Assembly: GCA_034722055.1 (NCBI GenBank)
Contig: JAYENL010000308.1
Location: forward strand, 1 to 55,580
Length of the DNA stretch: 55,580 nt
Reading direction: 5' to 3'
Source of the DNA: Armatimonadota bacterium
GTDB taxonomy: Bacteria > Armatimonadota > Zipacnadia > Zipacnadales > UBA5352
Made by a program: the position numbers and the translations under genes. Shown here piece by piece: positions 3,232 through 55,093 of the stretch. Below the pieces are notes generated by a model. It saw nothing but the letters and a program-made list of their open reading frames with translations, was not told where the DNA came from and searched no databases. Positions within the stretch are counted from its first letter, which is position 1; the number at the start of each line of letters is the position of its first letter.

Positions 3232-3257
3232 CTTCGCGTCCTACCGCCGCTCGACCT
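3232..3257 (-). promoter_or_regulatory. AGG-N18-GAA promoter-like motif upstream of queA
   Basis: Minus strand reads gcAGGT-cgagcggcggtaggacgc-GAAG. Confidence 0.55.
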
Positions 3258-3405
3258 GCCCTGCCGGTTCCCATCGACAGGCCCCTGGCTCCGGAACTTG
3301 CGGAGGCTGCGAAGGCGTTGTATTGGTTGCAGCGTCCCGGCAGGGAGGCGCAGATGTGCGCTGCCGGGGTCTGATGACGCCATTATTCGAGAGGACGGCG
3401 CTCGC

Positions 3406-4920
3406 ATGAGACTGAGAGCGATGCTCCCCGGGCTGGCGGTTGCTGCCGCTGTGGGCATCTGGGTGCTTCCCGGCTGCCAGCAGAAGCAGCAGCACACGGA
3501 GCCGCCTGCTCAGGCGGTTGAGGAGCCCACGACGATGTCCGAGCTGCCATCTGCGGCCGAGCTCGGTCCCGAGGAGGAGCCCGGGCTTCCGGACCTGGAG
3601 CCGGGAGAGGAGCCTGAGACCGAGGGCGGGCCCCTGGCCGGGGGTGAGCCGCCCGCAGGGGAGCTGTCCATCGATCCCGACCGCGAGTACGACAGCCGTG
3701 ATCTCGACAGGCTTCGGGGAGTGCTGGTCTCTGCGGAGGGCGAGTATCAGGCCAAGGCCCGCCGGCTGCTGGAGGAGCTTCTGCTGCACAGCAACGTCGC
3801 CAGCACGCGCCAGATGGCAGCCACGATCCTTGGGGCGGCGCCGGAGGAGTCGGTTGAGGCCCTCACTCGGGCCGCTCTCAACGATCCGGAGTCGGACGTC
3901 CGCGCTGCGGCCGTTGCGTCGCTGGGCGAGGCGCGGCGCTCCCCGGAGCTGATGGAGGCACTTGCTCGGCTCCAGGAGGCTCAGGACGCCAGGATCCGCC
4001 AGGCCGCGATAATGTCCGAGATATCGCTGCGGCTGAAGGACAAGGTGACCCGCGAGGACCATGTCTGGATCGAGCGGCTACTGGGTCGCAGGAAGGACGA
4101 CGCCTCCGCCCAGCTCCAGATTCAGCTCGTGCAGCGCGGGGCCAAGTCGCTGCCCCCGCTCTTCGAGGTACTAGAAAGCTCACCCAACCCGGTCGCCAGA
4201 CAGGCGGCGGGCTGCTGCATATCCCTCATCTGCGCGGGCACCAACGAGAGACAGCAGGAGTTCGCGGAACTGGCCCACACGGTCAAGAAGGAGGTCATCC
4301 GGGAGCCTGAGCCCGCTATCCTGGATGGAGTCAAGCCGCTGGAGCGCGCGCTCGACACCGACGCCGATCCGATCGTTCGTGCCATGGCCGCTCAGGGCCT
4401 CGGCTACCTGGGGCAGGAGAGCTCTGCACCTCTGCTGGGTGAGGCCCTCCACGATGACAACGAGGAGGTCCGCTGGTGGGCGGCGCTGGCCCTGGTTACG
4501 GTTCCCGCGGAGGCTGCTGTAGAGGACCTCGCCGAGGCGGCCACCAAGGATCCCTCGATGCGCGTAAGAGAGGCCGCCGTGCGGGCCCTGGGCTGGGTGG
4601 AGGACGAGCGGGTCGTGATGCCCCTGATCCGCGCGACCGCCGACGACGCCTCCCGCGTTCGGCAGGCGGCCGCCAGCGAGCTGAGCCGGGTCCGAAGCGA
4701 TGTGGCGCTGCAGGCCCTGTTGACGCTGTTCGATGATCCCAACGAGGATGTCCGCTGGGCCGCCGTCCTGGCCGTTGGGAAGCTGCGCAATCCCGAGTCC
4801 ACTTCAGCCCTTGCCAAGGCCATGCGCGACCCCAGCCCCATGGTGGCCAACGCCGCCGAACGCGCCCTCCAGCGCATGGGCGTCGCCGAGAGGCGGTTCG
4901 GAACCCGTGAGGAGATGTAA
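3406..4920 (+). CDS. HEAT-repeat (PBS-lyase-like) lipoprotein
   Basis: GAGGA RBS then ATG at 3406. Signal peptide with lipobox LPG-C, an acidic Pro/Glu-rich linker, then many D..VR..AA.ALG repeats. Confidence 0.85.
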   Translation: MRLRAMLPGLAVAAAVGIWVLPGCQQKQQHTEPPAQAVEEPTTMSELPSAAELGPEEEPGLPDLEPGEEPETEGGPLAGGEPPAGELSIDPDREYDSRDLDRLRGVLVSAEGEYQAKARRLLEELLLHSNVASTRQMAATILGAAPEESVEALTRAALNDPESDVRAAAVASLGEARRSPELMEALARLQEAQDARIRQAAIMSEISLRLKDKVTREDHVWIERLLGRRKDDASAQLQIQLVQRGAKSLPPLFEVLESSPNPVARQAAGCCISLICAGTNERQQEFAELAHTVKKEVIREPEPAILDGVKPLERALDTDADPIVRAMAAQGLGYLGQESSAPLLGEALHDDNEEVRWWAALALVTVPAEAAVEDLAEAATKDPSMRVREAAVRALGWVEDERVVMPLIRATADDASRVRQAAASELSRVRSDVALQALLTLFDDPNEDVRWAAVLAVGKLRNPESTSALAKAMRDPSPMVANAAERALQRMGVAERRFGTREEM

Positions 4921-4921
4921 C

Positions 4922-4973
4922 GCGCCGCGGACCCGTCCCGGTCTGCACAGGCCGCGGCGCCTCCAGGCGCCGC
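4922..4973. terminator. GC-rich inverted repeats between convergent genes (possible terminator, no U-tract)
   Basis: gcgccgcgg (4922-4930) pairs with ccgcggcgc (4952-4960); an alternative stem is gcggcgcct-cc-aggcgccgc (4954-4973). Confidence 0.3.
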
Positions 4974-5006
4974 CGCTCTCACACTTCAGAGCCGTGTGAC
5001 CTCCGA

Positions 5007-6110
5007 TTAGGCCCGATGCGTGAGCATCTCGTGGGCGTTCTCCAGCAGCTCCGGGATCTCCAGACCCACCGGGCACTTCTCGAGGCACTCGCCGCATGCG
5101 ACGCAGGCGTCGGCCTGCACCTGCAGCGATTCGTACAACTCATAGCCCATGTGCTCGAGGTTATCGGGGTAGCTCTCGACCATCTGCGCCGCTCTGAAGA
5201 TCTCGGGAATGGGGACTCCCTCGGGGCACGGCTGGCAGTACCCGCACCGCAGGCAGCGTTGCTCGTAGCGGTAGGATATGCCCCTGTCCGCGATGCGCCG
5301 CAACAGCTCGTCACGCTCCTCGTCGGACAGCGGGACGAAGGGATCCATCAGGGCCGCGTTCTCCTCCACCTCGTGGACCGCCTGCATGCCCGGGATGACC
5401 ACGTCCACGTTGGGGTCGCTGAGCACCCAGCGCAGCGTCCCGGCCACGATGGCGTCGGGTCCGCCCAGCCCCTCCTGGCGGGCGTCCTTGGGGTAGGCTA
5501 TCTTCCCGCCGGAGAGGGCCTTCATGACGATCGTGCCCATGTCGTGCTCCTTCGCCAGCTCGAAGATGCCCGCGTCACCCACGCTCTCGCTGTCCAGCGG
5601 GTTGTAGCAGAGCATGATGGTCTCGAACTCACCGCACTCAATGGCCTTGCGCATCACGTCCAGCGCGCGGTGAATAGTGATGCTGACGTGGCCGACCGTG
5701 CCCTCGTCCTCAGCCTTTCGGGCAGCCTCCAGCGCTCCGCCGGGGCCCATGACCTTCTGCCAGTTCTCCTCGTTGCTCACCGTGTGGAGCTGCCAGACGT
5801 CGATGTAATCCATCTGCAGCTCGGAGAGGCTGGTCTCCAGGTCTCGCATGGCCCCATCGTAGTCTCGCGAGCTGGTCTTGGTGGCGAGGTAGAACTGGTC
5901 GCGGCGGTCGCCCAGCGCCATGCCGATCTTGTGCTCGCTGTCGCGGTAGTTGCGGGCGGTATCGATGTAGTTGATGCCGAGGTCCAGCGCCCGATTGAGG
6001 CACGCTGCGGCCTCGTCCTCCGATATGTGGGGAAGCTTGATGGCCCCGAAGCTGATCGGGGTCACTTCGAGTTCCGTCCTGCCCAGTCGCACATGCTCCA
6101 CTTGTTTCAC
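5007..6110 (-). CDS. Aldo/keto reductase with C-terminal 4Fe-4S dicluster domain
   Basis: Motifs LGRTELEV, GINYIDTARNY, LATK, DYIDVWQLH; C-terminal CLRCGYCQPCP and CVACGECLEKCP. Confidence 0.92.
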   Translation of the reverse strand: MKQVEHVRLGRTELEVTPISFGAIKLPHISEDEAAACLNRALDLGINYIDTARNYRDSEHKIGMALGDRRDQFYLATKTSSRDYDGAMRDLETSLSELQMDYIDVWQLHTVSNEENWQKVMGPGGALEAARKAEDEGTVGHVSITIHRALDVMRKAIECGEFETIMLCYNPLDSESVGDAGIFELAKEHDMGTIVMKALSGGKIAYPKDARQEGLGGPDAIVAGTLRWVLSDPNVDVVIPGMQAVHEVEENAALMDPFVPLSDEERDELLRRIADRGISYRYEQRCLRCGYCQPCPEGVPIPEIFRAAQMVESYPDNLEHMGYELYESLQVQADACVACGECLEKCPVGLEIPELLENAHEMLTHRA

Positions 6111-6176
6111 GCCTCTCTGCAGAGGTCTCCGGGGCGGTTCCCGGAGCTGTCACGTCGAGGTGTGCTGTAGAACACT

Positions 6177-6201
6177 TTTCGTGCCACCGGCGCCGAGTCC
6201 T
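6177..6201 (-). promoter_or_regulatory. AGG-N17-GAA promoter-like motif upstream of the Fe-S aldo/keto reductase
   Basis: Minus strand reads gcAGGA-ctcggcgccggtggcac-GAAA. Confidence 0.55.
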
Positions 6202-6210
6202 GCCTTACAC

Positions 6211-6882
6211 TCAGTCGCCGCGGGGGCCGTGTTCGAGGAGCGCCCAGGTGCTGGGATCCCGGGCGTAGGGGAAGTCCTTGGCGGTCCCCCAGTACTGGGT
6301 GCCGCGCTGAATGTCGGTGACGACCGCCGCCATACCGATCCGCAGCCCCTCGGCGGGCTCGTATCCGTGCAGGGAATCCGGCGGGAGAGCAAGCTCGAGG
6401 GCGTAGCCGTCATCGCGCAGGTCCGCGGCCAGGCGAATGGCGTCGAAGTCGGCCTGGGGAGACCGCTGGAGCGCGCGCCGCAGCGGCTCCTGCCAGATCA
6501 GGGGATCTCCCCCACCGGCGCCGGGGCTGGTTGCCAGCACAATGAGGTGGTAGCAGAACTGGGTGGCGCGGTGGCTGGTCTGGGCGCCGCGGGTGTCGAT
6601 GAAGAGCTGAAGGGCGTCACCCGTGCCGGGGTTCTCGCGATTCGTTACCACCGGCTCCTGCTTGGGGACGTCCAGCCCCAGGTAGAGGCCGCGATCATTC
6701 CACGCGGCGTACAGCGCCGCGTACTGCTCCTCGCCTGACAGCTCGCCCAGCGGCGGCATGAGGCTGTCGTCGTCCCACTCGCCCAGGCTGCCGTCAACCC
6801 GCGGCGAGCGCGAGCGCCAGGGCGCGACCGCCACGGGCTGAAACAGCGCGGCCGGGGGGAACTCATAGTCGGCTCCGCTCAT
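6211..6882 (-). CDS. Cytoplasmic CBM9/DOMON-like beta-sandwich protein
   Basis: Motifs PRVDGSLGEW, YAAWNDRGLYL, GDALQLFID, GYALELALP. No signal peptide. Start overlaps the uvrA stop (ATGA). Confidence 0.7.
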   Translation of the reverse strand: MSGADYEFPPAALFQPVAVAPWRSRSPRVDGSLGEWDDDSLMPPLGELSGEEQYAALYAAWNDRGLYLGLDVPKQEPVVTNRENPGTGDALQLFIDTRGAQTSHRATQFCYHLIVLATSPGAGGGDPLIWQEPLRRALQRSPQADFDAIRLAADLRDDGYALELALPPDSLHGYEPAEGLRIGMAAVVTDIQRGTQYWGTAKDFPYARDPSTWALLEHGPRGD

Positions 6883-9800
6883 TCCGCCGCCACCGCCGCC
6901 GTCTCCGCGGCCAAAGCCCGGCGCACCATCTCCTGGAACGCCTGGCTGCGGACCTCGTCCTCGTAGAAGCCCCAGATGGTGATGAGGTCGTAGTCGCGGG
7001 AGCGCGTCTGCAGCCGCACCCGCGGCCGCTTCCCGTACCGCTGAACCTCCTCCAGCTCATTCCACGTCGGGAGGGCCAGCTCACGCTCCAGGCCCGCCTG
7101 GTCGAAAAGCCCCTTGGGCGCCCGAATCTGCAGGCGCACATCTGCGGGGCGATCAGTCCGTGCCCGGGCGGCCCAGTCGTCGCCATCCTCGGGGCAGAGC
7201 GTGACGTAGCGGCGATCCGCCCAGTCCGCGTCATCGAGGCCCATCGCCCGGCACGCCAGCTCAACGAATGCCGTCAGCGCACCGGCCTCCCACTCCCGGC
7301 GCTCGCCCGCCGGCGTGGTCTCGCCCAGGTGCCAGGCGCGGCCATCGCACTCCCAGGGACGCTCGGCGCCCTCGGCGAGAGCGTCGAGCGCCTCCCTGTG
7401 CGCCCGACGCCCCGGCGGGCCGGAGACGGCCTCCCAGCTCAGCTTCTCCCTCCGAGCGCGCTGCAGAGCGTGGGCCAGGAACGGCGCCGTGGCGGACGCC
7501 TGCGCTTCCGCTACGTCCTCCGGAGTGCCGCTCGCCACGACTCTGCCGCCGTTTTCGCCGCCGCCGGGGCCCAGGTCGATGACCCAATCGGCGCACTTGA
7601 TGACGTCCAGATTGTGCTCGATGATAATGACGGTATTGTCGGCCGCCACCAGCCGCTGCAGGACCTCCATGAGGTTGAGGATGTCCGCGCAGTGCAGTCC
7701 CGTGGTGGGCTCGTCGAGCAGGTAGACCACGTGCCCGCGGGCCGGCCGCGCCAGCTCCCGGGCCAGCCTGACCCGCTGGGCTTCCCCGCCCGACAGCATC
7801 GGCGCCGGCTGCCCCAGCGGCAGGTACTGCAGGCCGACGTCCGCCATGGTCTGCAGGATGTGGCGGATGCGGGGGAAGCTCTCGAAGTGCCCCAGCGCCT
7901 CCCCGACGGTCATCTCCAGCACGTCGGCGATGCTCTTGCCGCGGTACTTCACGTCCAGCGTCTCGCGGTTGTAGCGCGTCCCACCGCACTCCTCGCACTG
8001 CACCCAGACGTCGGGGAGGAAGTGCATCTCGATCAGCCGGCGGCCCATGCCCTCACAGGCCTCGCAGCGGCCGCCCTCTTTGTTGAAGCTGAAGCGCTCC
8101 GGGCCGTAGCCGCGCACCATGGCCTCCGGAAGCATGGAGTAAAGCTCGCGGATAAGGTCGAAAAGGCCGGTGTAGGTGGCGGGGATGGAGCGGGGCGTCT
8201 GGCCGATAGGCGCCTGATCGATGTTGATGACCTTGTCCACCTGGTCCAGGCCGAGGATCCGGCGGTGCGGCCCCCCCACCTCCTGCGCCCCGTGCAGATG
8301 ATAGGCCAGCTCCGGGTAGAGGATCTCATTGACCAGCGACGACTTCCCCGACCCGGAGGGGCCGGTGACACAGGTAAGGACGCCGAGCGGGAAGTGGGCG
8401 TCGATGTCCTTCAGGTTGTGGTGGCTTGCCCCGATGACGCTCAGCCAGCCGGCGGCGGGATCGCTGTTGCTCGGTGGCGGGGGCAGCTCCCGGCGCTCCG
8501 CAGGCACCGGCACCTGCAGCTCGCCCGCCAGGAGCTGGCCGGTGCGGGAGGTCTTTCGCCGCTGCACCTGCTTGAGGGTGCCGGACGCCACGACTCTGCC
8601 GCCCTCGGGGCCCGATCCGGGGCCAAGGTCAATGAGGTGATCGGCCTCGCGGAGGGTCTGCTCATCGTGCTCCACCACCAGCGCGGTGTTGCCCAGGTCG
8701 CGGAGGTCCTTGAGGGCCTCCAGCATCCGCTCATTGTCGCTGGGATGCACGCCAACGGTGGGTTCGTCCAGCACGTAGAGCACGCCGGTCAGCCCGGAGC
8801 CGATCTGGCCTGCCAGGCGCACTCGCTGGGTCTCGCCGCCCGAGAGCGACGGCGCCGAACGATTCAGCGTCAAGTAGCCCAACCCGATGTTCACCAGCAG
8901 CCGCAGCCGCCGCACGATCTCCTCGAGGATCTCGCCGGCCACCTCCTGCTCGCGGTCAGACAGCTCCAGGCCCGCGAAGAACTCCTCCGCCTCGGTCAGC
9001 GGCAGATCCCCGACTTCGACGATGGACTGTCCGCGAAGCCTCGCCGCGGCGGCCTCGGCGTTCACTCGCCCACCGTGGCAGGCGGGGCAGGGCAGGTCAC
9101 GGAGGATGCGACCCACGCGCTTGCGGAAGCGCGAGCTGAGCCGGCTGGTCTCCTCGATGGATGAGACCAGCCCGCCGAAGCGCACGGTCAGCCGCTGGTC
9201 AACCTCGAACTCCCGATCCCCGGCGCCGTAGAAGATCAGCCGGCGATGCTCCTCGGAGAGCTCCTCGAAGGGCGTGTCCAGGTCGAAGCCGGCGTCCCGG
9301 GCCACCGCCTGCAGCATGCGCTCCAGCAGCGACCCCGGCCGGAGCTCGCCCCAGGGGCTGAGGGCGCCCTCGCGGATGGACAGCGTCGGGTCGGGCACCA
9401 GCGCCCGCGGGTCGGCCCCCCGCCGCGTGCCCAGCCCCTCACACTCCGGGCACCAGCCCTCGCGGTGGTTGAACGAGAAGCTGCGGGGGCTGAGCGGCTC
9501 GTAGGCGGCGCCGCACTGCTCGCAGGAGTGATGCTGCGAAAAGGTCCGCTCGTCGGCTTCGTCGGCGGCCACCGTGAGCCGCCCACCGCTGAGGTCCAGG
9601 GCAGCCTCAACCGCCTCCGCCAGTCGCGATCGGCGGCCGTCGGTGAGGTCGATGCGGTCCACCGCCACCTCCACCGTGTGCCGCCTGCGGCGCTGGATAT
9701 CCTGCTCCACCGGCAGGCGCTCGACCTCGCCGTCGATGCGCACGCGAACCCATCCGGCTCGCTGCAGGCGGTCGAAAAGGTCCGCCCACTCCTCGTTGCC

Positions 9801-12800
9801 CCGCGGCTCCACCGGGGCCAGGATCAGCACGCGCTGATCGCGGAAGTCAGCCAGCACCTCCCCGGCGATCTGGTCCTGCGTCTTGGAGCCCACCTCGGCC
9901 CCACACTCCGGGCAGTGCGGCGTAGCCAGCCGAGCGAAGAGCACCCGCATGTAGTCGTAGATGGTGGTTACGGTCCCGACCGTGGAGCGGGGATTGTGGG
10001 AGGGCTGCTTCTGATCGATGGCGACGGCCGGCGGCAGCCCCGTAACGCGATCCACCTTGGGCTTGTCGATCTGGCCCACGAACTGCCGGGCGTAGGAGGA
10101 CAGGGACTCCACGTAGCGCCGCTGGCCCTCCGCGTAGATGGTATCCAGCGCCAGTGAGGTCTTTCCCGATCCGCTCACCCCTGAGACGGCGGTGAGCTGG
10201 TGCCGCGGGACCTTCACATCCACCGCCCGCAGGTTGTGCTCCCGGGCGCCGCTGACCTCGATGTCGCCGGTCTTGATGTTCTTGCGCCGCCGCGCCGAGG
10301 CCACGTCCGGACGCTCCACCTCACCCTCCTCCAGCACCTCCCGGAGCATGGCGCCGGTGTACGACTGCTCGCACTCGGCGACCTGCTCCGGCGTCCCGCA
10401 CACCACGATGTCGCCGCCCTCCTCGCCACCCTCCGGCCCCAGGTCAATGACCCAGTCGGCGCTCTTGATGATGTCGGGATGGTGCTCCACCACGATGACG
10501 GTGTTGCCCTCGTCCACGAAGCGGTGCAGGACGTTGAGCAGGTCCTGCACGTCGGCGAAGTGCAGGCCGGTGGTGGGCTCGTCGAGGATGTAGAGGTTGC
10601 GACCGCTGCGGGGGCGGGCCAGCTCCTCGGCCAGCTTCACTCGCTGGGCCTCCCCGCCCGACAGGGTCGGCGCCGGCTGGCCCAGCTTGATGTAGCCGAG
10701 GCCCACATCGGCCATGATCTGGAGCATATCCCGGATCTTGGGCTGGTTGGAGAAGTGCTCGATGGCCTCGCCGACCTCCATCTCCAGGACGTCGGCGATG
10801 TTCTTGCCCCGGTAGCGGATCTTCAGGGTCTCATCGTCGAAGCGCCGGCCGTTGCAGGCCTCACAGGTCACCCACACGTCTGCCAGGAAGTCGGACTCCA
10901 GCTTCACCGCCCCGTATCCCTCGCAGGCGGCGCAGCGGCCCTCGGAGACGTTGAAGCTGAACCGCCCGGGCTTGTAGCCGCGCTGGCGAGACCCGGGGAG
11001 CTGGGAGAAGAGCTTCCGGATGTGGTCGAAGACCCCCACGTAGGTGGCCGGGTTGCTCCGCGGGGTGCGGCCGATGGGGTCCTGGTCAATCAGGACGACC
11101 TTCTCCAGCTCCTCCAGCCCCTGCACCGAGTCATGCTCGCCCGGCTCGCTCTGAGCGCCCTGCAGCTCCCGGGCCAGAGCGGCGTGCAGCGTGTCGGTGA
11201 CCAGCGAGCTCTTTCCCGAGCCGGAAACGCCGGTGATGGTGATGAACCGGCCCAGCGGGAACTCCACGTCCAGATCGCGGAGGTTGTTGTGCCGGGCTCC
11301 CTGCAGCAGCAGTCGCTGGCCGTTGCCGTTGCGGCGCTGCTCCGGAACGGGAATCTCTCGCCTGCCGGAGAGATAGCTGCCGGTGATGGAGGCCCGCCGC
11401 CGCGCGATCTGCTTGGGGGTGCCCATGGCCACGATCTCTCCGCCACGCTGGCCGGCGCCGGGGCCGAAGTCCACCACGTAGTCGGCCGCCCTGATGGTCT
11501 GCTCGTCATGCTCCACCACGATGATGGTGTTGCCGCTGTCGCGCAGGTGCTCCAGGGTCTTGAGAAGCTGGCCCTGATCCCGGTGATGCAGGCCGATGCT
11601 GGGCTCGTCGAGGATGTAGAGCACATCCACCAGGCCACTGCCCACCTGCCCGGCCAGCCGGATGCGCTGGGCCTCACCGCCCGAGAGCGTCGGGGCAGTG
11701 CGGTTGAGGCTGAGGTAGTCAAGCCCCACCTCGGAGAGGAAGCGCAGGCGGGAGCGGATCTCCTTCAGTGCGTCCTCCGCGATCATGGCCTCGGCCTCGG
11801 TGATCTGCAGCGAGTCGAAGAAGTCGCGGGCGTCGCTGACGGTCATCTCGGCGATGTCGCCGATGGAGACGCCTCCCACGGTCACCGCCAGGCTCTCGGG
11901 CCGCAGGCGCTTGCCACCACATGTGGAGCAGGTGGTGGTGCGCATGGCGTCCTCGAACTTGCGACGCAGGGAGCGAGACTTCAGCCGCTTGTAGCGGCGC
12001 ATCAGATGCCCCATCAGCCCATCCCAGGGATCGGCGTGGCGCCACTCCCAGCCGCGCCAGGGATGCTTGAAGTAGAACTCGATCTGCTCCCCGTCGGAGC
12101 CGTAGAGGAGGTGGTGCCGCTGCTGGTCGGTGAGGTCCTTCCACGGGGTGTCCAGCGTGAAGCCGTAGTGGTTGGCCACGCCCTCCAGCCAGTGCCGCCA
12201 CCTGGCGTTGGAGGTTGAGCGCATCAGCTCAATGCAGCCCTCACGGAGCGACTTCTGGGGGTCGGAGACGATGAGCTCCGGAACGAACTCCCGACGCTCC
12301 CCGAGGCCGTCACAGTCAGGACACATGCCCTTGGGGCTGTTGAAAGAGAAGTGAGCATGGGTGGGGGTCTCGAAGCTGAGGCCACAGTCCGCGCAGGCGA
12401 AGCGGCTGGAGAGCATGAGGTCCTCCTCGCCCTCCACCGCCACCACCACGGTGCCCTCGGACAGCTCCAGCGCCTGCTCCACGGCGTCGGCGATGCGGGC
12501 GCGGTAGCGTGGCATGATGGTGATTCGGTCGGTGACGATCTCGACATCATGGAAGCGCTGGCGATCGAGCTGCGGCGGATCACGCAGCTCAATGACGTCG
12601 CCGTCCACCCGCGCCCGGGCCCAGCCGCGTCGGAGCATGTCCTCGAAGAGGTCCTGAAACTCGCCCTTCTGCCGGCGGGCGACCGGCGCCAGGATCACGG
12701 CCTTCTGGCCGTCAGCCTCAGCCAAGATGCGGGCGATGATGGCGTCGCGCGACTGGCTGCCGATGTCCCGTCCGCACTGGGGGCAGTGCGGGACTCCGAT

Positions 12801-13145
12801 GGCCGCGAAGAGCACGCGCAGGTGGTCGTAGATCTCCGTGATGGTGGCGACCGTGGAGCGGGGGTTGTGGCTGCGCGCGGCCTGGTCCACGGCGATGGTG
12901 GGGGTGAGCCCCTCGATCTCATCGACGTCCGGTCGCGGCAGGTCCCGCAGGAACTGCTTCGCGTAGTTCGACAGAGACTCCACGTACCGGCGCTGGCCCT
13001 CCGCGAAGATGGTGTCGAAGGCCAGCGATGACTTCCCGGACCCGCTGACGCCGGTGAAGGCGATCAGCTTGCCCTTGGGCAGGTCGAGATCGATGTCCCG
13101 CAGGTTATGCTGGCGGGCACCGCGGATGCGAATAGTGTCGGACAC
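6879..13145 (-). CDS. uvrA: Excinuclease ABC subunit A, tandem-duplicated form with C-terminal extension
   Basis: Two complete UvrA units: four Walker A (GxSGSGKS/T), four LSGGExQR signatures, four Walker B (LDEP), and Zn fingers. GGAGG RBS before GTG at 13145. Confidence 0.96.
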   Translation of the reverse strand: MSDTIRIRGARQHNLRDIDLDLPKGKLIAFTGVSGSGKSSLAFDTIFAEGQRRYVESLSNYAKQFLRDLPRPDVDEIEGLTPTIAVDQAARSHNPRSTVATITEIYDHLRVLFAAIGVPHCPQCGRDIGSQSRDAIIARILAEADGQKAVILAPVARRQKGEFQDLFEDMLRRGWARARVDGDVIELRDPPQLDRQRFHDVEIVTDRITIMPRYRARIADAVEQALELSEGTVVVAVEGEEDLMLSSRFACADCGLSFETPTHAHFSFNSPKGMCPDCDGLGERREFVPELIVSDPQKSLREGCIELMRSTSNARWRHWLEGVANHYGFTLDTPWKDLTDQQRHHLLYGSDGEQIEFYFKHPWRGWEWRHADPWDGLMGHLMRRYKRLKSRSLRRKFEDAMRTTTCSTCGGKRLRPESLAVTVGGVSIGDIAEMTVSDARDFFDSLQITEAEAMIAEDALKEIRSRLRFLSEVGLDYLSLNRTAPTLSGGEAQRIRLAGQVGSGLVDVLYILDEPSIGLHHRDQGQLLKTLEHLRDSGNTIIVVEHDEQTIRAADYVVDFGPGAGQRGGEIVAMGTPKQIARRRASITGSYLSGRREIPVPEQRRNGNGQRLLLQGARHNNLRDLDVEFPLGRFITITGVSGSGKSSLVTDTLHAALARELQGAQSEPGEHDSVQGLEELEKVVLIDQDPIGRTPRSNPATYVGVFDHIRKLFSQLPGSRQRGYKPGRFSFNVSEGRCAACEGYGAVKLESDFLADVWVTCEACNGRRFDDETLKIRYRGKNIADVLEMEVGEAIEHFSNQPKIRDMLQIMADVGLGYIKLGQPAPTLSGGEAQRVKLAEELARPRSGRNLYILDEPTTGLHFADVQDLLNVLHRFVDEGNTVIVVEHHPDIIKSADWVIDLGPEGGEEGGDIVVCGTPEQVAECEQSYTGAMLREVLEEGEVERPDVASARRRKNIKTGDIEVSGAREHNLRAVDVKVPRHQLTAVSGVSGSGKTSLALDTIYAEGQRRYVESLSSYARQFVGQIDKPKVDRVTGLPPAVAIDQKQPSHNPRSTVGTVTTIYDYMRVLFARLATPHCPECGAEVGSKTQDQIAGEVLADFRDQRVLILAPVEPRGNEEWADLFDRLQRAGWVRVRIDGEVERLPVEQDIQRRRRHTVEVAVDRIDLTDGRRSRLAEAVEAALDLSGGRLTVAADEADERTFSQHHSCEQCGAAYEPLSPRSFSFNHREGWCPECEGLGTRRGADPRALVPDPTLSIREGALSPWGELRPGSLLERMLQAVARDAGFDLDTPFEELSEEHRRLIFYGAGDREFEVDQRLTVRFGGLVSSIEETSRLSSRFRKRVGRILRDLPCPACHGGRVNAEAAAARLRGQSIVEVGDLPLTEAEEFFAGLELSDREQEVAGEILEEIVRRLRLLVNIGLGYLTLNRSAPSLSGGETQRVRLAGQIGSGLTGVLYVLDEPTVGVHPSDNERMLEALKDLRDLGNTALVVEHDEQTLREADHLIDLGPGSGPEGGRVVASGTLKQVQRRKTSRTGQLLAGELQVPVPAERRELPPPPSNSDPAAGWLSVIGASHHNLKDIDAHFPLGVLTCVTGPSGSGKSSLVNEILYPELAYHLHGAQEVGGPHRRILGLDQVDKVINIDQAPIGQTPRSIPATYTGLFDLIRELYSMLPEAMVRGYGPERFSFNKEGGRCEACEGMGRRLIEMHFLPDVWVQCEECGGTRYNRETLDVKYRGKSIADVLEMTVGEALGHFESFPRIRHILQTMADVGLQYLPLGQPAPMLSGGEAQRVRLARELARPARGHVVYLLDEPTTGLHCADILNLMEVLQRLVAADNTVIIIEHNLDVIKCADWVIDLGPGGGENGGRVVASGTPEDVAEAQASATAPFLAHALQRARREKLSWEAVSGPPGRRAHREALDALAEGAERPWECDGRAWHLGETTPAGERREWEAGALTAFVELACRAMGLDDADWADRRYVTLCPEDGDDWAARARTDRPADVRLQIRAPKGLFDQAGLERELALPTWNELEEVQRYGKRPRVRLQTRSRDYDLITIWGFYEDEVRSQAFQEMVRRALAAETAAVAAE

Positions 13146-13211: not shown

Positions 13212-13241
13212 ATTGTATCAGAACGTATGTTCGCGGGTCAA
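13212..13241 (-). promoter_or_regulatory. Sigma70-type promoter of uvrA
   Basis: Minus strand reads TTGACC-N18-TACAAT with an extended TGn before the -10. Confidence 0.75.
13221..13232. promoter_or_regulatory. LexA operator (SOS box), GAAC-N4-GTTC type
   Basis: GAACGTATGTTC (CGAACATACGTTCT on the minus strand) lies between the -35 and -10 of uvrA and matches the Firmicutes/Actinobacteria/Chloroflexi consensus. Confidence 0.85.
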
Positions 13242-13256: not shown

Positions 13257-13281
13257 CTTCAGGCTCAAGTTGCTGGAACCT
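13257..13281 (-). promoter_or_regulatory. AGG-N17-GAA promoter-like motif upstream of the uvrA sigma70 promoter
   Basis: Minus strand reads gtAGGT-tccagcaacttgagcct-GAAG. Confidence 0.4.
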
Positions 13282-13418: not shown

Positions 13419-14840
13419 CTACTCCTCGTAGACCCAGTGCAGGAACTCGTCGTAGCCCTCACTGAAGCCCTTGAGGGTCCGGGCGGCGGGCACGTGGTCG
13501 ATGAACTCCTCGGGCGTCATGCCGTCCGGCTCGTAGGCCTGGCGGAAGGTCCTGCTTTTCATCAGCTTGTCGAGGTAGCCGTCGGGGAGCGGGGTCCAGA
13601 TGCCGTCGGGGTCGATCTCCCGGGGCACGGACTCGTAGAGCTCGGCCTTGTCCGGGAAGATGGTGATGAAGTTGGTGAGCGGGCCATTGCTGGTCCCGCG
13701 GATGATGTTCCACGGACCGCGGCCGGAGGCCGCCAGCGGGAAGCTCTTCTCAAAGCCCACGCCACCCTTCTCCGGCGGATGGCACAGCATGCGATACTCG
13801 CGCTGGCGCATGGCCGTGGTGGCCCACTTTTTGACCTCCTCCCAGTCCTCGACGCCGGCCTCCTCCAGCTCCTCGCCGACCGGGTCATCGAGGCGGCCGT
13901 CCATCTGCGTCCGGAAGCTCACCTTGGTGGTGCTGTGCTCCTCGATGGCGCCGGCGAAGGCGATCTGCTGCGGCAGTGCGAAGTTGACCGTCACATTCAC
14001 ACCCATGCCCTTGCCGGTAAGCTGCTTGGCGGCCTCGATGCCAGCCAGCGTCCCGGGGACCTTGAAGACGGTGTTGGGCCTGCCGCCCAGCTCGTCCTCG
14101 AGCTGCCCGTAGACCCAGGTGGCCTCGTCCACCATCTTGTCGGCGTTGGTGGCCTCCTTGGGATTGAGCTGCAGGCTCACGTAACCCAGGTCACCGTCGG
14201 TGATCTCCCAGATCGGTCGCAGGAGTCTGGCGTTGGCCAGGACGACCTGGATGGTCATGGCGTAGGCCAGCGTCACAGGGTCGGCGTCTTGGCCGTACTT
14301 CTCGCGCAGCTCATCGCGCACCGGCGTCCAGTACTGGGGATCGTCCTTGCGGGCGATGTCCACCAGCACCGGGTTGGTGGTCACCAGGATGGCGCCCTTC
14401 TGCATGGCCTTCCGCAGGCCGGAGGCGTAGTCGTTGCCCCAGTAAGTGTTCAGCTCACCCGCCAGCGTCATGCGCGTCAGCCTCACGAGGTTGCTGTCGG
14501 CCATCCCCTCAGCCTCGTCCAGGGCTCGCTGGGCCTCGTCGTCGGCCCCGAGGTCCTTGAGAAGCTGCACGTTGGCCTGGACCTGCTCGTCGAGCTGCTC
14601 CTCGGTGGCGACGGCATCGCCGTAGCGGTCCGCGTTGCACAGGTTCCAGTCGGCGAGCACGGACTTGAGGTCGATGGCGCTCTCAGCGATGGTCTCTGCG
14701 ATCTCCGCCTTGCCATCCGCCTTAGCCGAGGCGTAGGCTTTCTTCATCTCGGCCCGGAAGTCGTCCAGCCTCTCGGCCAGGTCGCCGGGAACCGTGTGGA
14801 AGATCAGGTCCTGCAGTGTCGAGATCTGGTCATTCGTCAT
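13419..14840 (-). CDS. Transaldolase/FSA-family protein with N-terminal extension
   Basis: Motifs WGNDYA, VTTNP, FKVPGT (Schiff-base Lys), GVNVTVNF, GRLDD; about 120 extra N-terminal residues; GAGGAG RBS. Confidence 0.85.
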   Translation of the reverse strand: MTNDQISTLQDLIFHTVPGDLAERLDDFRAEMKKAYASAKADGKAEIAETIAESAIDLKSVLADWNLCNADRYGDAVATEEQLDEQVQANVQLLKDLGADDEAQRALDEAEGMADSNLVRLTRMTLAGELNTYWGNDYASGLRKAMQKGAILVTTNPVLVDIARKDDPQYWTPVRDELREKYGQDADPVTLAYAMTIQVVLANARLLRPIWEITDGDLGYVSLQLNPKEATNADKMVDEATWVYGQLEDELGGRPNTVFKVPGTLAGIEAAKQLTGKGMGVNVTVNFALPQQIAFAGAIEEHSTTKVSFRTQMDGRLDDPVGEELEEAGVEDWEEVKKWATTAMRQREYRMLCHPPEKGGVGFEKSFPLAASGRGPWNIIRGTSNGPLTNFITIFPDKAELYESVPREIDPDGIWTPLPDGYLDKLMKSRTFRQAYEPDGMTPEEFIDHVPAARTLKGFSEGYDEFLHWVYEE

Positions 14841-14916: not shown

Positions 14917-14941
14917 CTTCTACGTGCGGCCCGCAATCCCT
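14917..14941 (-). promoter_or_regulatory. AGG-N17-GAA promoter-like motif upstream of the transaldolase gene
   Basis: Minus strand reads ggAGGG-attgcgggccgcacgta-GAAG. Confidence 0.55.
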
Positions 14942-15093
14942 CCATCGCCGCCCGCAAAATGCTCACTGGCTGGACGACCAGTTCCGCGCACGGTGGAACG
15001 CGGGTTGCTGCAAAAAGCTCCAGAGCGGAGGCGGTGCGGAGGCAGACGGCGAAATCCGGCTCCGGCCAAGGCCGGGGGGTCCGCAAACCCAGC

Positions 15094-16083: not shown

Positions 16084-16155
16084 GGGAATCGTCCTGGTTG
16101 TGCGTTGAACGAGGCCGGGAAAGGGCGCGGCCTGGGAGCACGCACGGTCTCAGCG

Positions 16156-16729: not shown

Positions 16730-16754
16730 CTTCGTAGTGACCGCACTGCGGCCT
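16730..16754 (-). promoter_or_regulatory. AGG-N17-GAA promoter-like motif
   Basis: Minus strand reads cgAGGC-cgcagtgcggtcactac-GAAG. Confidence 0.4.
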
Positions 16755-21682: not shown

Positions 21683-21708
21683 ATTCGCCGCTGACAGGTG
21701 CAGTCCCT
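21683..21708 (-). promoter_or_regulatory. AGG-N18-GAAT promoter-like motif upstream of fbaB
   Basis: Minus strand reads agAGGG-actgcacctgtcagcggc-GAAT, with a TATAAT 4 nt further downstream. Confidence 0.6.
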
Positions 21709-21725: not shown

Positions 21726-22667
21726 TCACTGTGGCCCGGTGAGCCCCTCCCACTCCATGGCCTCGAAGCGCACGATCTCCCGCAGCGCCTGATAGCGGCG
21801 TCGCAGCTCGCGGCCGTCGAGCCGCAGGAGGCCCTCGAGGCTGAAGCCCTCCACACAGCCGGAGGCGATCACGGTGCCGAAGGCCACCGCCCGTCGCAAC
21901 TCCCTGTTGCAGCAGTCATCGTGCCGGGCCAGCAGACCGATCATTCCGCCGGCGAAGCTGTCTCCCGCCCCGGTGGGATCGACCACGTTGGGCAGCGGAT
22001 AGGAGGGGATGCTGAAGTAGTCATCATGTGACACAAGCGCCGCGCCATACTCGCCCTTTTTGATTACCACGAACCTGGGGCCCATGTCCAGGACGATCTC
22101 CGCGGCCTGCGCCAGGTTCGGGGTTGCGGCAAGCTGGCGGATCTCGGCGTCGTTGAGCAGCGCCAGGTCAACGTGGGCAAGCACCTGTTGGAGCGCCTCC
22201 GGCTCGTTCTCGATCCAGAAGTTCATGGTGTCACACATCACGAAGCAGGTCTCGTCGAGCTGGTCCAGGACCGCGAGCTGAACCTGGGGCTGAATGTTGG
22301 CGAGGAAGCAGTAGCGGCTGTCGAGGTAGCTGTCAGGCAGCGTGGGGGTCCAGTCAGCGAAGACGTTGAGCTCGGTCGCGAGCGTCTCGCGGCTGTCGAG
22401 ATCGTAGTCGTACTGGCCGCTCCAGAAGAAGCTCTTCGCGTCCTCGATGCGCTCCACACCCATCAGGTCCGAGCCCCTCGCGCGCAGCAGCTCCAACGCT
22501 TCCTCCGGGAAGTCACCACCGATGACGCCCACTACCCGGCTCGGGGCCAGCAGGCTGGCAGCGACGGATGCGTAGACGGCCGCTCCGCCGACCACTCGAT
22601 CAACCGCACCGAATGGCGTCTTGACGCTATCGAGTGCCATAGAACCAACTATGACCATTCCAGCCAT
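21726..22667 (-). CDS. PfkB-family sugar/nucleoside kinase
   Basis: Motifs VGSMALDSVKTP, GGAAVY, DTMNFWI, KKGEYG, DPTGAGDSFAGG. Start moved to ATG at 22667. Confidence 0.9.
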   Translation of the reverse strand: MAGMVIVGSMALDSVKTPFGAVDRVVGGAAVYASVAASLLAPSRVVGVIGGDFPEEALELLRARGSDLMGVERIEDAKSFFWSGQYDYDLDSRETLATELNVFADWTPTLPDSYLDSRYCFLANIQPQVQLAVLDQLDETCFVMCDTMNFWIENEPEALQQVLAHVDLALLNDAEIRQLAATPNLAQAAEIVLDMGPRFVVIKKGEYGAALVSHDDYFSIPSYPLPNVVDPTGAGDSFAGGMIGLLARHDDCCNRELRRAVAFGTVIASGCVEGFSLEGLLRLDGRELRRRYQALREIVRFEAMEWEGLTGPQ

Positions 22668-22699
22668 CGCTGGACCATCCTCGGCGCAGCTACTGGCGA

Positions 22700-27700: not shown

Positions 27701-27729
27701 AGAGTAGCAGTTTGCGGGGCCATTGTCAA
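27701..27729 (-). promoter_or_regulatory. Sigma70-type promoter of the rmlD operon
   Basis: Minus strand reads TTGACA-N17-TACTCT with a TGn extension; ATG is only 9 nt downstream. Confidence 0.7.
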
Positions 27730-34598: not shown

Positions 34599-34624
34599 CT
34601 TCGCTCCCATCCGTCTCCCATCCT
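34599..34624 (-). promoter_or_regulatory. AGG-N18-GAA promoter-like motif upstream of the aldo/keto reductase
   Basis: Minus strand reads gcAGGA-tgggagacggatgggagc-GAAG. Confidence 0.55.
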
Positions 34625-34687: not shown

Positions 34688-34712
34688 AGGATTCGCGTGC
34701 TCGGCGGAGAAG
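34688..34712 (+). promoter_or_regulatory. AGG-N17-GAA promoter-like motif upstream of the sulfatase
   Basis: tcAGGA-ttcgcgtgctcggcgga-GAAG. Confidence 0.55.
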
Positions 34713-36736: not shown

Positions 36737-36762
36737 AGGGCTCGGTGCTGACGACGACGAAC
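36737..36762 (+). promoter_or_regulatory. AGG-N18-GAA promoter-like motif
   Basis: ggAGGG-ctcggtgctgacgacgac-GAAC. Confidence 0.55.
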
Positions 36763-36812
36763 AAGCTGCCTGCTGTCCAGGGCCGCAGGAACGGATGCTG
36801 GAGGTGGACGTG

Positions 36813-44500: not shown

Positions 44501-45069
44501 ATCGTCTTCAGGCAGCGCTGGCCCGAGTGCGGATTCTCGCGCACCCACATGGCCTGATGCTGCTCATCGCCGGCGTCGTGACGCCAGCCGGTGGGTGTGT
44601 CGCCCTCACCGTGCTCCACGCCGCCGTTGCGGACTCCCACCGAGGCCTGGAGGAACTCAGCCACCTGCCACGCGTGCGGGTTGTCGGCGTAGACGTAGTA
44701 GGTCGCCGTCTCTCCAGCCGGGCATTGTGCGGGGATCACCAGTCGGGCGCCGGCCGGGATGGGCCCGGAGGTCACGTCGCCGCCAACTGAGGTGATGCGG
44801 AAGAGCATCTCCGTGCCCTCAGCATCGCAGACGCGGATCGCCTCCGCCGGCGATCCCGCGAGAGGCACCTGCCCTCCAGCGTCCCCGATCTGCACAGCGA
44901 CCGGCGCGCCGGCCGCATCCCGGTCCGTCTCATTGTGTATCTGAACCGGAACGCGGCTGCGCCACACGCCGCCGTTGCCCAGGTAGAGCGGATGATGCCA
45001 GCCATCCGTCGCATAGGCTGTTGATGCGCACACGAGCATCACAGATGCGCCCACCAGGCACCGAGCCAT
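41515..45069 (-). CDS. Secreted GH123/DUF4091-like glycoside hydrolase with two CBM4/9-like domains
   Basis: Signal peptide; NGGVE...WFDDV and NPSFEE...WHDGV modules; motifs WPDPL, VWDFTLP, YISDEP, NGDGYLAYPG, SIRLEMAREGVEDYEYL. Confidence 0.8.
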   Translation of the reverse strand: MARCLVGASVMLVCASTAYATDGWHHPLYLGNGGVWRSRVPVQIHNETDRDAAGAPVAVQIGDAGGQVPLAGSPAEAIRVCDAEGTEMLFRITSVGGDVTSGPIPAGARLVIPAQCPAGETATYYVYADNPHAWQVAEFLQASVGVRNGGVEHGEGDTPTGWRHDAGDEQHQAMWVRENPHSGQRCLKTIVAGGAEPTWIATRQRGIHVIGGQRYRLTAWVRAKDVEGYAGWYVHVGNEDDPMIIGPMARAGDGTFDWTQVSLEFDAPEEANQASLGTVLRGTGAAWFDDVALEAIGGEVRLTATAGQAERLELREIGAEAPWADAGERPYRMPVTVTNLSPEERSNLLVHVDTTPVLGRLAGRVNPDSMMIATGPQRSPSYLGDLRSHDGALLFQADVPARSISTFHLYFSDDPQATFEPTESYADLLHGEANMARNPSFEEGGELPADWPGGAEGERPEGAELEVVEGGLFGERAARIQVPHRSRTAWTGWRQDVPVRPGRTYLFAAWVRTEDIAGTVRIHAHYRTADGELCETQKYTSAGPDLTGTEDWTLLSGLFEMPADAATFQLHLTMNATGTVWHDGVVMAEATSGHVGEMQVHPSRRVSAPSFWPVNPIVKVFRDDPAPQSIQPARITAARNDVEPLQLAVRAPEDLEGLHIEVDQPTNAQGEQLPQAETAVVGYVPIDHATSYYSSQRPTWQRKYPRVPGRCDGWAGWWPDPLRPTDTFDLDARTTQPIWLSLRIPEDARAGDYRGAVRIVGQAGTVAETPFMVHVWDFTLPPVSHVQAIYDARAHHSQWFSPGEGRPEQLRKLWRLMADLRLCPDRVHPAPSFSYEDGEVSADFTAFDEAAEYYFEDLGFQHSYTPGLFYCFGWGHPPKSLWGVEPYDGEYPYEGVDRSRLRPEYRRVYQQALRLFWEHVQERGWADRFVLYISDEPWFTRREYIVDQMRALCEMIHEVSPEIPIYSSTWSYEPRWRESLDVWGVGHYGRVPPKELATIREAGGRIWWTTDGQMCTDTPFCAIERLLPHYCFQYGAEAYEFWGIDWLTYDPWEFGWHSYIRQSGEPGEHHWVRYPNGDGYLAYPGEAIGLDGVVSSIRLEMAREGVEDYEYLQMLRELVARGREAAVDVSVGEAALAEAEALVDMPSAGGRYSTEILPRPGAVLQVKETVARAIETLRDRLGEY

Positions 45070-45087: not shown

Positions 45088-45113
45088 ATTCCACGGCGCT
45101 GGCGATGAGCCCT
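45088..45113 (-). promoter_or_regulatory. AGG-N18-GAAT promoter-like motif
   Basis: Minus strand reads ggAGGG-ctcatcgccagcgccgtg-GAAT. Confidence 0.55.
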
Positions 45114-45123: not shown

Positions 45124-45148
45124 AGGAAACAGCCGGCTTACGCGGAAG
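45124..45148 (+). promoter_or_regulatory. AGG-N17-GAA promoter-like motif
   Basis: cgAGGA-aacagccggcttacgcg-GAAG. Confidence 0.55.
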
Positions 45149-48352: not shown

Positions 48353-48358
48353 GCGGAC

Positions 48359-49558: not shown

Positions 49559-49589
49559 TTCAGCCACCTCCATGTAAGCGGTCAGCCGG

Positions 49590-51836: not shown

Positions 51837-51901
51837 GCGTAAACCTCCTCTTGAGCCGCACCACATAGCGTCGTCTGCTCCTGTGATGGGGCAGCCGCCC
51901 C

Positions 51902-53485: not shown

Positions 53486-53575
53486 CGCTTGATCTCCTTT
53501 GCCGCAGGCGCAGTGGTGGCACTCATGCAGCAGACCAGCTCGCTCCCCCGGTCGCTCTCCCGTCGGTCCTCGTGT

Positions 53576-53601
53576 ATTCCATGCCGACCGGCTCGCCTCC
53601 T
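53576..53601 (-). promoter_or_regulatory. AGGA-N18-GAAT promoter-like motif upstream of the SSS transporter
   Basis: Minus strand reads aaAGGA-ggcgagccggtcggcatg-GAAT. Confidence 0.6.
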
Positions 53602-53642
53602 TTGCGGAGTACGCCGAGGCTCTGCTTGAGGCAGTACAGGGC

Positions 53643-53668
53643 AGGGGACTCCTGGCGGGCTACGGAAC
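53643..53668 (+). promoter_or_regulatory. AGG-N18-GAA promoter-like motif upstream of the MFS transporter
   Basis: gcAGGG-gactcctggcgggctacg-GAAC. Confidence 0.55.
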
Positions 53669-53722
53669 CTCCCTCCGCTCCGGGGCACCGCGCTGTGCAG
53701 GCCAGAACGGAGGGTGGTCCAC

Positions 53723-55057
53723 ATGTCAGACCAAGATGGTGCCCGGCCGGATGAGCAGCGCCTCGCAGGTCCTACGAGCGTCCCGCTGCTCCACAAGTTC
53801 CTCTACGGCCTCGCTTACGTGCCGGTGGGCCTGTCTACCATTATGGTCATGACGTGGATCGGCATGCGCTACTACCCGCCGGAGACCGCAACCGCCGCGT
53901 CCGTCGCGCTGGCGACCGAAGGCGCGGTCGCAGCGGCGCTCATCCTCGGCCGGGTGGTGGACGCGATCGCCGACCCACTACTGGGCTACTGGAGCGATCG
54001 CTTGCGCACGCGGTGGGGCCGTCGCAAGCCTTTCATCCTCGTCGGCGGCCCGCTGCTGGCGGTGACCTTCGTGCTCATCTGGACGCCGCCGGTGCCGGCG
54101 TTGTCCGCGATCAACGCCGTCTATCTCGGCATCACGGCGTCGGCGTTCTTCTTCGCCTTCACGGTTGTGGTCTGCCCGTATCTGGCCATGCTGCCGGAGA
54201 TCACCCCAGATCCCGCGGAGCGGGTCAGCCTCGGCGCGTGGCAGGGCGGGTTCAACGTGCTTGGCACAGTGGGCGGCATGGCGCTGACCGGCTACCTGGT
54301 GCACAGCTATGGCTACCGCACTATGGGCCTGGTCTACGCACCCGTGATACTGTTCTGTGCGTGGGCACCACTGCTCGTTCCCACGCCGGTGGCGGCCAAG
54401 GAGCCCAGTGATCTCCCACTCCGCCGGGCCGTCGCCAGCACCTTCAGCAACCCGTGGTTCCCGCCTTACGTCATCAGCCAGCTCCTCTTCTGGCTGGCGC
54501 TGAGCATTGTACTCATGGCCGGCCTCCAGCTCCCCGTAGCGAGAGCGAGAGTCGATGAGGCGGTGGCGGGCCTGCCACTCGCGGCGGCCCTCCTCGTGGC
54601 AGGGCTGCTCTTCCCGGTGATGCGCACTCTAGCGGAGCGCGTGAGCAAGCGCAGGCTGCTGATGGGCGCGATGGTCTGGCTCGGCCTGATGATGGTGCCA
54701 CTGATATTCGCAGGACTGCTGCCGTTGCCGCTGACGGCATTCCAGCAGATGTTCCTGGTGATGGCTCTTGCAGGGCCGTCGGTGGCAGCGCTCTTCGCGC
54801 TGCCGAACCCGATGGTGGGCGACATCGTGGACCATGACGAGGAGCTTACCGGCCAGCGCCGCGAGGCTATCTACTTCGGCGTTCAAGGCCTGCTCGTCAA
54901 AGCGGGCACCGGCGTCGGGGCCGGCATTGCAGTCCTGCTGCTGGGCCTGTTCGGCAATGACGCAACGCGCCAGGGCGGCTTCATCGCCTGCCCGCTGGTC
55001 GCGATGGTGCTGGCATGGGTGGCTGCGGCAGTGCTCACTCGCTACCGCGGCGACTGA
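53723..55057 (+). CDS. MFS transporter, glycoside-pentoside-hexuronide (MelB-like) family
   Basis: Motifs DAIADPLLGYWSD, RWGRRKPF, PYLAMLPE, DIVDHDE...RREAIYFG. Confidence 0.9.
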   Translation: MSDQDGARPDEQRLAGPTSVPLLHKFLYGLAYVPVGLSTIMVMTWIGMRYYPPETATAASVALATEGAVAAALILGRVVDAIADPLLGYWSDRLRTRWGRRKPFILVGGPLLAVTFVLIWTPPVPALSAINAVYLGITASAFFFAFTVVVCPYLAMLPEITPDPAERVSLGAWQGGFNVLGTVGGMALTGYLVHSYGYRTMGLVYAPVILFCAWAPLLVPTPVAAKEPSDLPLRRAVASTFSNPWFPPYVISQLLFWLALSIVLMAGLQLPVARARVDEAVAGLPLAAALLVAGLLFPVMRTLAERVSKRRLLMGAMVWLGLMMVPLIFAGLLPLPLTAFQQMFLVMALAGPSVAALFALPNPMVGDIVDHDEELTGQRREAIYFGVQGLLVKAGTGVGAGIAVLLLGLFGNDATRQGGFIACPLVAMVLAWVAAAVLTRYRGD

Positions 55058-55067
55058 GGTCGCGAGC

Positions 55068-55093
55068 AGGGCGCAACTGCGCCGGCGACGAAA
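55068..55093 (+). promoter_or_regulatory. AGG-N18-GAA promoter-like motif
   Basis: gcAGGG-cgcaactgcgccggcgac-GAAA. Confidence 0.55.

Follow-up and report, generated by a model that had tools for sequence, protein, structure and literature searches.

A putative SigH-type promoter class outnumbers the sigma-A class in an uncultured bacterium of the Armatimonadota

In the usual view, a bacterium reads most of its promoters with a single group-1 sigma factor, and two-domain sigma factors are minor specialists. In mycobacteria, SigA and SigB reportedly co-transcribe housekeeping genes. For SigH, the accessible text of PMC12456013 gives a motif of AGGA and GAAT boxes with a 17-18 nt spacer, a regulon of 48 genes in Bacillus subtilis, and 322 SigH start sites mapped by differential RNA sequencing in Sporomusa sphaeroides KIAC, where 16.1% of the motifs belong to SigH and 69.8% to SigA. 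Thermotoga possesses SigH, and only an RpoD motif was detected there according to the accessible part of PMC3636130. The present analysis concerns a window of 55,580 nucleotides (the whole stretch of DNA that was analyzed, contig C308, GenBank JAYENL010000308.1) from the 6.14-Mb genome of an uncultured Armatimonadota bacterium (68% GC, 92.7% complete, labelled G000), and a two-box element, AGG-N18/19-GAA, that recurs in it. With a fourth base counted in each box, the element is AGGN-N17/18-GAAN. An earlier note on this DNA had proposed a sigma-H-like promoter class, and this proposal is well supported by two SigH-family genes in the host, by the published SigH spacing, and by three orthologs of known targets.

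The feature is real and conserved in the host's own class within Armatimonadota (the "class" of all counts below), and as judged from promoter predictions the promoters of the SigH-family type have come to outnumber those of the primary sigma factor. The nearest published case is Sporomusa sphaeroides KIAC, which also has the SigH motif at hundreds of start sites, including those of energy and carbon metabolism. The host differs from it in lying outside Bacillota, in being characterized from sequence alone, and in its ratio of SigH-type to sigma-A sites, which is about 2.4 to 1 genome-wide and 3.4 to 1 in divergent regions. The host resembles B. subtilis and Clostridia in having SigH proteins that match NF006148 and contain regions 2 and 4 only, in the AGG and GAA cores and their spacing, in the targets dnaG-sigA, ftsA, and hpf, and in the position of one sigH gene near tuf and rpmG-secE-nusG-rplK (the last four names assigned by sight). 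Unlike B. subtilis, it has about 850 sites rather than a 48-gene regulon, relaxed fourth bases, two SigH paralogs, no Spo0A found, more SigH-type than sigma-A sites, and a sigma-A-led spoVS. Mycobacterial SigA and SigB are similar in that routine transcription is shared by two sigma factors; however, SigB is a group-2 relative of SigA, while in the host the partner would be a SigH of two domains that has its own type of promoter and its own set of genes. A literature search, with most subscription papers outside it, found no report on Armatimonadota promoters and none of SigH-type promoters outnumbering sigma-A ones. The word "sigma" is absent from the accessible main text of the paper describing the class (PMC10290634).

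The element is strongly enriched upstream of genes throughout the host genome. All genome counts rest on 4482 genes called with the author's own hexamer-model gene caller. The earlier note had called for strand-oriented counts and a comparison with shuffled sequence, and both show the enrichment, with sense over antisense. Of 1008 divergent upstream regions, 507 contain the strict motif, while only 231 of 5040 dinucleotide-shuffled sequences do, and in tandem regions it is found in 345 of 1762 on the sense strand and 56 of 1762 on the antisense strand. Operon-internal regions (41/873) and convergent stretches (61/692) have few copies. Only spacers of 18 and 19 are enriched among the 10-27 scanned. 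A two-block motif search, also suggested earlier, took the form of an unbiased count of every pair of 3-mers across 2271 upstream regions, and AGG...GAA ranked first: AGG-19-GAA occurs 519 times versus 71 expected and AGG-18-GAA 303 times versus 72, while the sigma-A pair TTG-20-TAT occurs 95 times versus 16. Inside genes AGG-19-GAA is found at 0.70 (sense) and 0.72 (antisense) of the same-frame expectation, while the values for six control pairs with this spacing lie between 0.94 and 1.16.

The form and placement of the element fit a promoter class that would alternate with sigma-A. The element has the consensus GnAGGw ... (c)g(g)cGAA, and most single substitutions within the six core bases show no enrichment. 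Both the GAA box and the -10 box of sigma-A sites lie most often 42-48 nt before the start codon. With promoter matrices trained on the host genome itself, 49.7% of 995 divergent regions match the SigH type and 14.7% match sigma-A (shuffles 1.4% and 1.0%). The two occur together in only 0.7% of these regions, so that they appear mutually exclusive, as expected of alternative promoters. The possibility that the two SigH paralogs divide the 18 and 19 spacers by flanking bases was rejected, since no position differs at p<0.001 between matrices from 270 and 489 sites.

SigH-type sites are more than twice as numerous as sigma-A sites. At 10 bits or more, 1003 of 4482 genes have a SigH-type match (127-168 with wrong spacers) and 463 have a sigma-A match (87-118 with wrong spacers), giving about 850 and 360 genes after background correction. 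The 1008 divergent leaders, scanned over at most 445 nt, divide into 563 SigH-type, 175 sigma-A, 23 with both, 69 weak, and 178 with neither. Thus the SigH type would keep more than half even if all weak and unassigned leaders were sigma-A. A search for hidden sigma-A promoters consisting only of a -10 box in the 178 unassigned leaders found no excess (7.3% versus 10.9% in shuffles). A separate motif, GGAAC-N15-18-SGTY, is present in 5.6% of these 178 leaders versus 1.1% of shuffles, and it probably marks a small regulon of an extracytoplasmic function (ECF) sigma factor. The intergenic DNA of the host also contains a dispersed repeat family (for example C2:562-671 and C4:34752-34879). One 14-mer has 168 copies, which frequently form inverted pairs separated by about 110-130 nt, and none of the top 25 14-mers lies within the window.

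The two promoter classes lead different sets of genes. Sigma-A boxes precede tRNA, rRNA, ribosomal, ATP synthase, dnaA, and gyrB units, and the rRNA leader has two of them. Among 54 tRNA and tmRNA calls, a sigma-A box is found within 150 nt of 22 and a SigH-type site near 2; most of the remainder either lie inside clusters or are calls of doubtful validity. SigH-type promoters therefore do not lead rRNA and tRNA genes, unlike those of a group-1 primary sigma factor. A core set of 109 chosen E. coli proteins, 100 of which have a best match in the host (some may be paralogs), gave 61 units: 34 with sigma-A, 12 with SigH-type, 2 with both, and 10 with neither, while 3 lie at contig ends. The ratio of 34 to 12 compares with 409 to 949 for the genome as a whole (odds ratio 7, p 6e-10). 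The core units in the SigH-type class include queA, fbaB, tktA, ftsA, and dnaG-rpoD, and the units of tktA, accA, glmM, glmU, dxr-proS, ftsA, hpf, and dnaG-rpoD have a SigH-type site and no sigma-A box. Large gene families fall mainly in the SigH-type class: 24% of SigH-type leaders but 8% of sigma-A leaders belong to genes with at least five paralogs, and for the 32 largest families the counts are 274 and 45. The ratio is 28 to 1 for sulfatases and 12 to 1 for aldo/keto reductases. The predicted SigH-type class is thus one of expanded catabolic and transport families plus some core units. The earlier suggestion that a sigma-H-like factor drives housekeeping and carbohydrate genes agrees with this for catabolism, queA, and fbaB; however, most core units carry sigma-A boxes, and by these predictions the housekeeping part is valid for only a minority of them.

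The host has two SigH-family factors among about 24 sigma-70-family genes, as found in the sigma factor inventory that the earlier note had asked for. The genome has 25 Sigma70_r2 matches: one RpoD, one SigB/F-like, two FliA-like, one in an enzyme fusion, two SigH, and the remainder ECF-like except for one without a family under the author's gene call. The two SigH proteins, SigH1 (G000 C130:44723-45361, minus strand) and SigH2 (G000 C284:23459-24148, minus strand), both pass NCBIfam SigH NF006148 (cut-off 208), one at 244.4 and the other at 221.6 bits. Against the spore_sigH model TIGR02859 the pair reaches 234 and 210 bits, below its cut-off of 294.8, which is passed in none of the 121 phylum genomes. 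Both proteins (212 and 229 amino acids) contain only Pfam Sigma70_r2 and r4_2, and SigH2 lacks regions 1.1, 1.2, and 3 of group-1 sigma factors, which only RpoD (C59) has. No Spo0A match (TIGR02875, E<=1e-20) was obtained in the host genome, which is 92.7% complete, and SpoVG and MinC were not found in it. Three further observations concern sigma factors in the class. Some class genomes have a third, divergent SigH paralog (L242, L315; G089, G053). In RpoD (L001:1006-3087, G000 C59; 693 amino acids), Ig-like domains of the Big_5 family separate region 1.2 from region 2. A Sigma70_r2 match lies inside a 2-oxoacid dehydrogenase E1 alpha-beta fusion (L018:376-2718, G000 C327).

The two sigH genes differ in location, upstream signals, and conservation. 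The position of sigH upstream of rpmG-secE-nusG-rplK is conserved, and sigH1 precedes tRNAs, tuf, and then the rpmG-secE-nusG-rplK block (names other than tuf assigned by sight). It has a 24-bit sigma-A box before it, and such a box precedes the SigH1-type copy at all class loci examined. sigH2 lies elsewhere, before glyQS-like genes, and has no such box. Autoregulation of sigH2 is unsupported: there are two strict but weak sites in the host, and the SigH2 upstream regions examined in other genomes have none. In a quick tree of 44 proteins, SigH1 and SigH2 form separate old paralog groups, and within the class the SigH2 branches are short while the SigH1 branches are long. Mean identity over eight genomes is 69.5% for SigH2 and 53.2% for SigH1. 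Among named SigH relatives, the nearest come from Armatimonadota, with "Candidatus Zipacnadia" at 77% and "candidate division WS1" at 79% identity among them, so the class of the host is probably Zipacnadia.

Orthologs of known SigH targets carry the motif, including the operon of the primary sigma factor. B. subtilis dnaG-sigA has two SigH promoters according to the accessible text of PMC2824700, and that of PMC12421865 states that hpf requires SigH and lists ftsA/ftsZ among SigH-linked genes. In the host, dnaG-rpoD has two SigH-type sites and no sigma-A box within 420 nt, while ftsA and hpf have 18-bit SigH-type sites. spoVS is also a SigH target in B. subtilis, and the motif is therefore found at three of four orthologs (dnaG-sigA, ftsA, and hpf, but not spoVS). 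Upstream of dnaG the strict motif is present in 19 of the 20 class genomes sampled (30 searched), and the sequence of the spacer is free. The wrong-spacer control, with two sets pooled, is positive in 9 of 20, and a sigma-A match of at least 10 bits occurs in 2 of 20, far upstream. In other classes the strict motif precedes dnaG in 6 of 20 genomes, including one of six that are SigH-negative.

The distribution among relatives suggests an old presence of SigH-type promoters in the phylum and their expansion in the class of the host; either paralog type may read them. SigH is found in 84 of 121 phylum genomes, and SigH2 (at least 53% identity) in 28 of 30 class genomes. In 25 of the 28 class genomes with SigH2, the back-to-back pair pattern exceeds its reversed control by a factor of 2.5 or more, and neither of the two without SigH2 shows such an excess. 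Outside the class this count, made over the 121 genomes, is too noisy for use. Counts of the 18-spacer form in single class genomes, with the same-frame wrong spacer as control, are flat in a genome without a SigH match (G128, 118 versus 111) and enriched in G130, G140, and G142. Three SigH-negative genomes of other classes, pooled, show no enrichment (10 versus about 8 in 239 leaders). In region samples of 80-140 kb each, six genomes of the class show an excess per leader of 0.13-0.35, while SigH-bearing genomes from other classes give -0.01 to 0.09 in seven cases and 0.14-0.20 in three (G072, G011, and G094). Expansion across the whole phylum was rejected, because seven of the ten SigH-bearing genomes of other classes show little excess. 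The loose sigma-A pattern fails in AT-rich outgroups (28 versus 29.7 in Rossellomorea), and no sigma-A ratio is given for them. The related genomes are kin, incomplete, and sampled in small numbers, and are not independent of one another.

The AGG-N18/19-GAA element probably represents the -35 and -10 boxes of promoters read by a SigH-family sigma factor, which has become a second bulk sigma factor beside RpoD. SigH would read the motif, and RNA would start a few bases after GAA. SigH2, the better conserved of the two, would be the likelier main reader, and SigH1 perhaps shares sites. RpoD would transcribe the rRNA, tRNA, ribosome, ATP synthase, dnaA, gyrB, and sigH1 units, and SigH most units for catabolism, transport, and secreted enzymes plus ftsA, hpf, and the dnaG-rpoD operon. 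With a sigma-A box before sigH1 and SigH-type sites before the rpoD operon, the classes would be cross-wired, each feeding the other. It is unlikely that the reader is instead another ECF or group-3 sigma factor. The host has about 24 sigma-70-family genes, mostly ECF-like, and the consensus is looser than AGGA/GAAT; however, the spacing, core bases, and targets fit SigH, the signal is absent where SigH was not found, and the leaders without both classes are enriched in the separate ECF-like motif GGAAC-N15-18-SGTY. We consider it very improbable that the motif lies beside weak sigma-A promoters and serves there as the operator of some abundant transcription factor, as a signal at the RNA level, or as one for ribosome binding. 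AGG resembles a Shine-Dalgarno core, and the earlier note had named ribosome-binding sites as an explanation that would overturn its proposal, but the AGG lies at least 60 nt before the start codon and has an ATG behind it at the distance of a ribosome site in no more than 40 of 702 leaders. In 536 of the 702 there is a Shine-Dalgarno-like core of its own (the gene caller rewards such cores), and the motif is asymmetric, strand-specific, and exclusive of sigma-A boxes. The free spacers also mean that it is not a dispersed repeat.

The role of the predicted SigH promoters in the cell can be read in two ways. The class may have two main sigma factors, with an essential SigH2 starting most protein-coding units in ordinary growth, the RpoD operon among them, and RpoD serving largely stable RNA and the growth machinery; we give this just short of an even chance. 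Alternatively, SigH reads the same promoters by the same mechanism, yet is a conditional starvation sigma factor with a very large regulon, so that RpoD makes nearly all growth RNA and catabolic genes come on only once preferred carbon is exhausted. This difference in timing is a serious possibility, though we would sooner expect it to prove wrong. It is consistent with the motif at hpf, with the sigma-A boxes of core growth genes, with motif leaders rich in paralogous catabolic families (274 versus 45), and with SigH of B. subtilis being a nutrient-limitation sigma factor (accessible text of PMC12421865). However, dnaG-rpoD lacks a sigma-A consensus in the host and in 18 of 20 class genomes over the approximately 440 nt searched, and the tktA, accA, glmM, and dxr-proS units have a SigH-type site only. 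Since dnaG has no sigma-A box (internal promoters before rpoD were unsearched), the evidence leans toward a role of SigH in steady growth rather than in starvation only.

Several observations weigh against the proposed SigH explanation. About 17 other ECF-type sigma factors are present, the fourth bases of the boxes are loose (A 0.33, T 0.21) and unlike AGGA/GAAT, spoVS has a sigma-A box, and AGG-18-GAA is not depleted inside genes (1.00 and 0.96). Any consensus will miss some degenerate sigma-A promoters, so that their count is too low. Three small SigH2-bearing class genomes of one genus show no back-to-back excess (8/6, 3/6, and 6/6), and the 18-spacer form is enriched (302 versus 187) in G129, which has a non-SigH2 copy only, so that SigH2 alone may not be the reader. 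SigH2-type proteins in other classes accompany only weak enrichment (30 versus about 14 in 318 leaders); SigH2 alone therefore does not predict expansion, and its presence was rejected as a predictor across the phylum. Finally, promoter function and the identity of the reader are inferred from DNA and protein comparisons.

Within the window, the sites stand before genes far more often than chance would place them (Table 1). All 14 sites listed earlier are present, each on the strand of its downstream gene, with a spacer of 18 in six and 19 in eight. With spacers of 17-19 the two strands of the window together hold 59 matches, so that raw counts mean little and placement is what counts. An oriented strict site precedes 16 of the 25 genes with an upstream gap of at least 60 nt (binomial p about 3e-14 at 6% per region), in line with the earlier estimate that the oriented placement was unlikely to be random. 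The statement that the motif precedes most transcription units is thus correct for the window, but genome-wide it applies to about half of divergent starts. The three divergent pairs with one copy per direction were correctly described, and a fourth (14917 minus, 15029 plus) was overlooked, as was the weak site at 22657-22681. Three of the 14 sites are weak by the matrix (13257, 16730, and 34688). The sigma70 promoters recognized earlier at uvrA and rmlD both score well with the sigma-A matrix.

Table 1. SigH-type and sigma-A promoter elements predicted in the window
Element	Positions	Strand	Details
SigH-type site, queA-tgt unit	3232..3257	-	19 spacer, 14.3 bits
SigH-type site, aldo/keto-reductase gene 5007-6065	6177..6201	-	18 spacer, 14.5 bits
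Sigma-A consensus of uvrA, TTGACC..TACAAT	13212..13241	-	19.1 bits; GAAC-N4-GTTC in spacer
Weak SigH-type site upstream of uvrA	13257..13281	-	5.8 bits
SigH-type site, transaldolase-like gene 13419-14840	14917..14941	-	14.1 bits
SigH-type site, gene 15094-16083	15029..15054	+	14.3 bits; fourth divergent pair
Weak SigH-type site, gene 16156-16656	16730..16754	-	4.0 bits
SigH-type site, fbaB (class I aldolase)	21683..21708	-	14.0 bits; TATAAT directly after, sigma-A score 9.6
Weak SigH-type site, sugar kinase gene 21726-22532	22657..22681	-	7.8 bits
Sigma-A consensus of rmlD unit, TTGACA..TACTCT	27701..27729	-	16.4 bits
SigH-type site, aldo/keto-reductase gene 33551-34558	34599..34624	-	14.2 bits
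Weak SigH-type site, sulfatase gene 34866-36665	34688..34712	+	6.4 bits
SigH-type site, 1569-aa gene 36795-41504	36737..36762	+	15.5 bits
SigH-type site, GH123-like/CBM gene 41515-45039	45088..45113	-	12.8 bits
SigH-type site, FAD-dependent oxidoreductase gene	45124..45148	+	10.3 bits
SigH-type site, sodium/solute symporter unit	53576..53601	-	12.7 bits
SigH-type site, GPH sugar symporter	53643..53668	+	9.8 bits
SigH-type site, GH67-N-like gene at 55134	55068..55093	+	13.9 bits

Other features of the window were found near these sites. A complete AGGA-N17-GAAT at 16071-16095 (minus strand) lies between convergent genes and points antisense into the gene at 15094-16083; it is possibly an antisense promoter. 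The spacer of the uvrA sigma-A promoter contains GAAC-N4-GTTC at 13221-13232, which we take to resemble the LexA box of Gram-positive bacteria. This sequence occurs in 7 upstream regions genome-wide versus 0, 3, and 0 at other spacings. The uvrA frame itself (6879-13145, minus strand) is about 2090 amino acids, twice the usual length, with two stretches matched by NCBIfam, the best at residues 22-959.

The predicted promoters of the host reverse the usual counts, and across the class the operon of the primary sigma factor has a SigH-type signal only. If SigH has the role proposed here, nature would here offer an example of one sigma factor in the course of handing over to another, and SigH with part of its regulon (dnaG-sigA, ftsA, and hpf) would exist outside the spore-forming Bacillota. 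Most catabolic promoters of these sediment and digester bacteria would then go unread by a sigma-70 host, which would matter for their cultivation and for expression of their genes.

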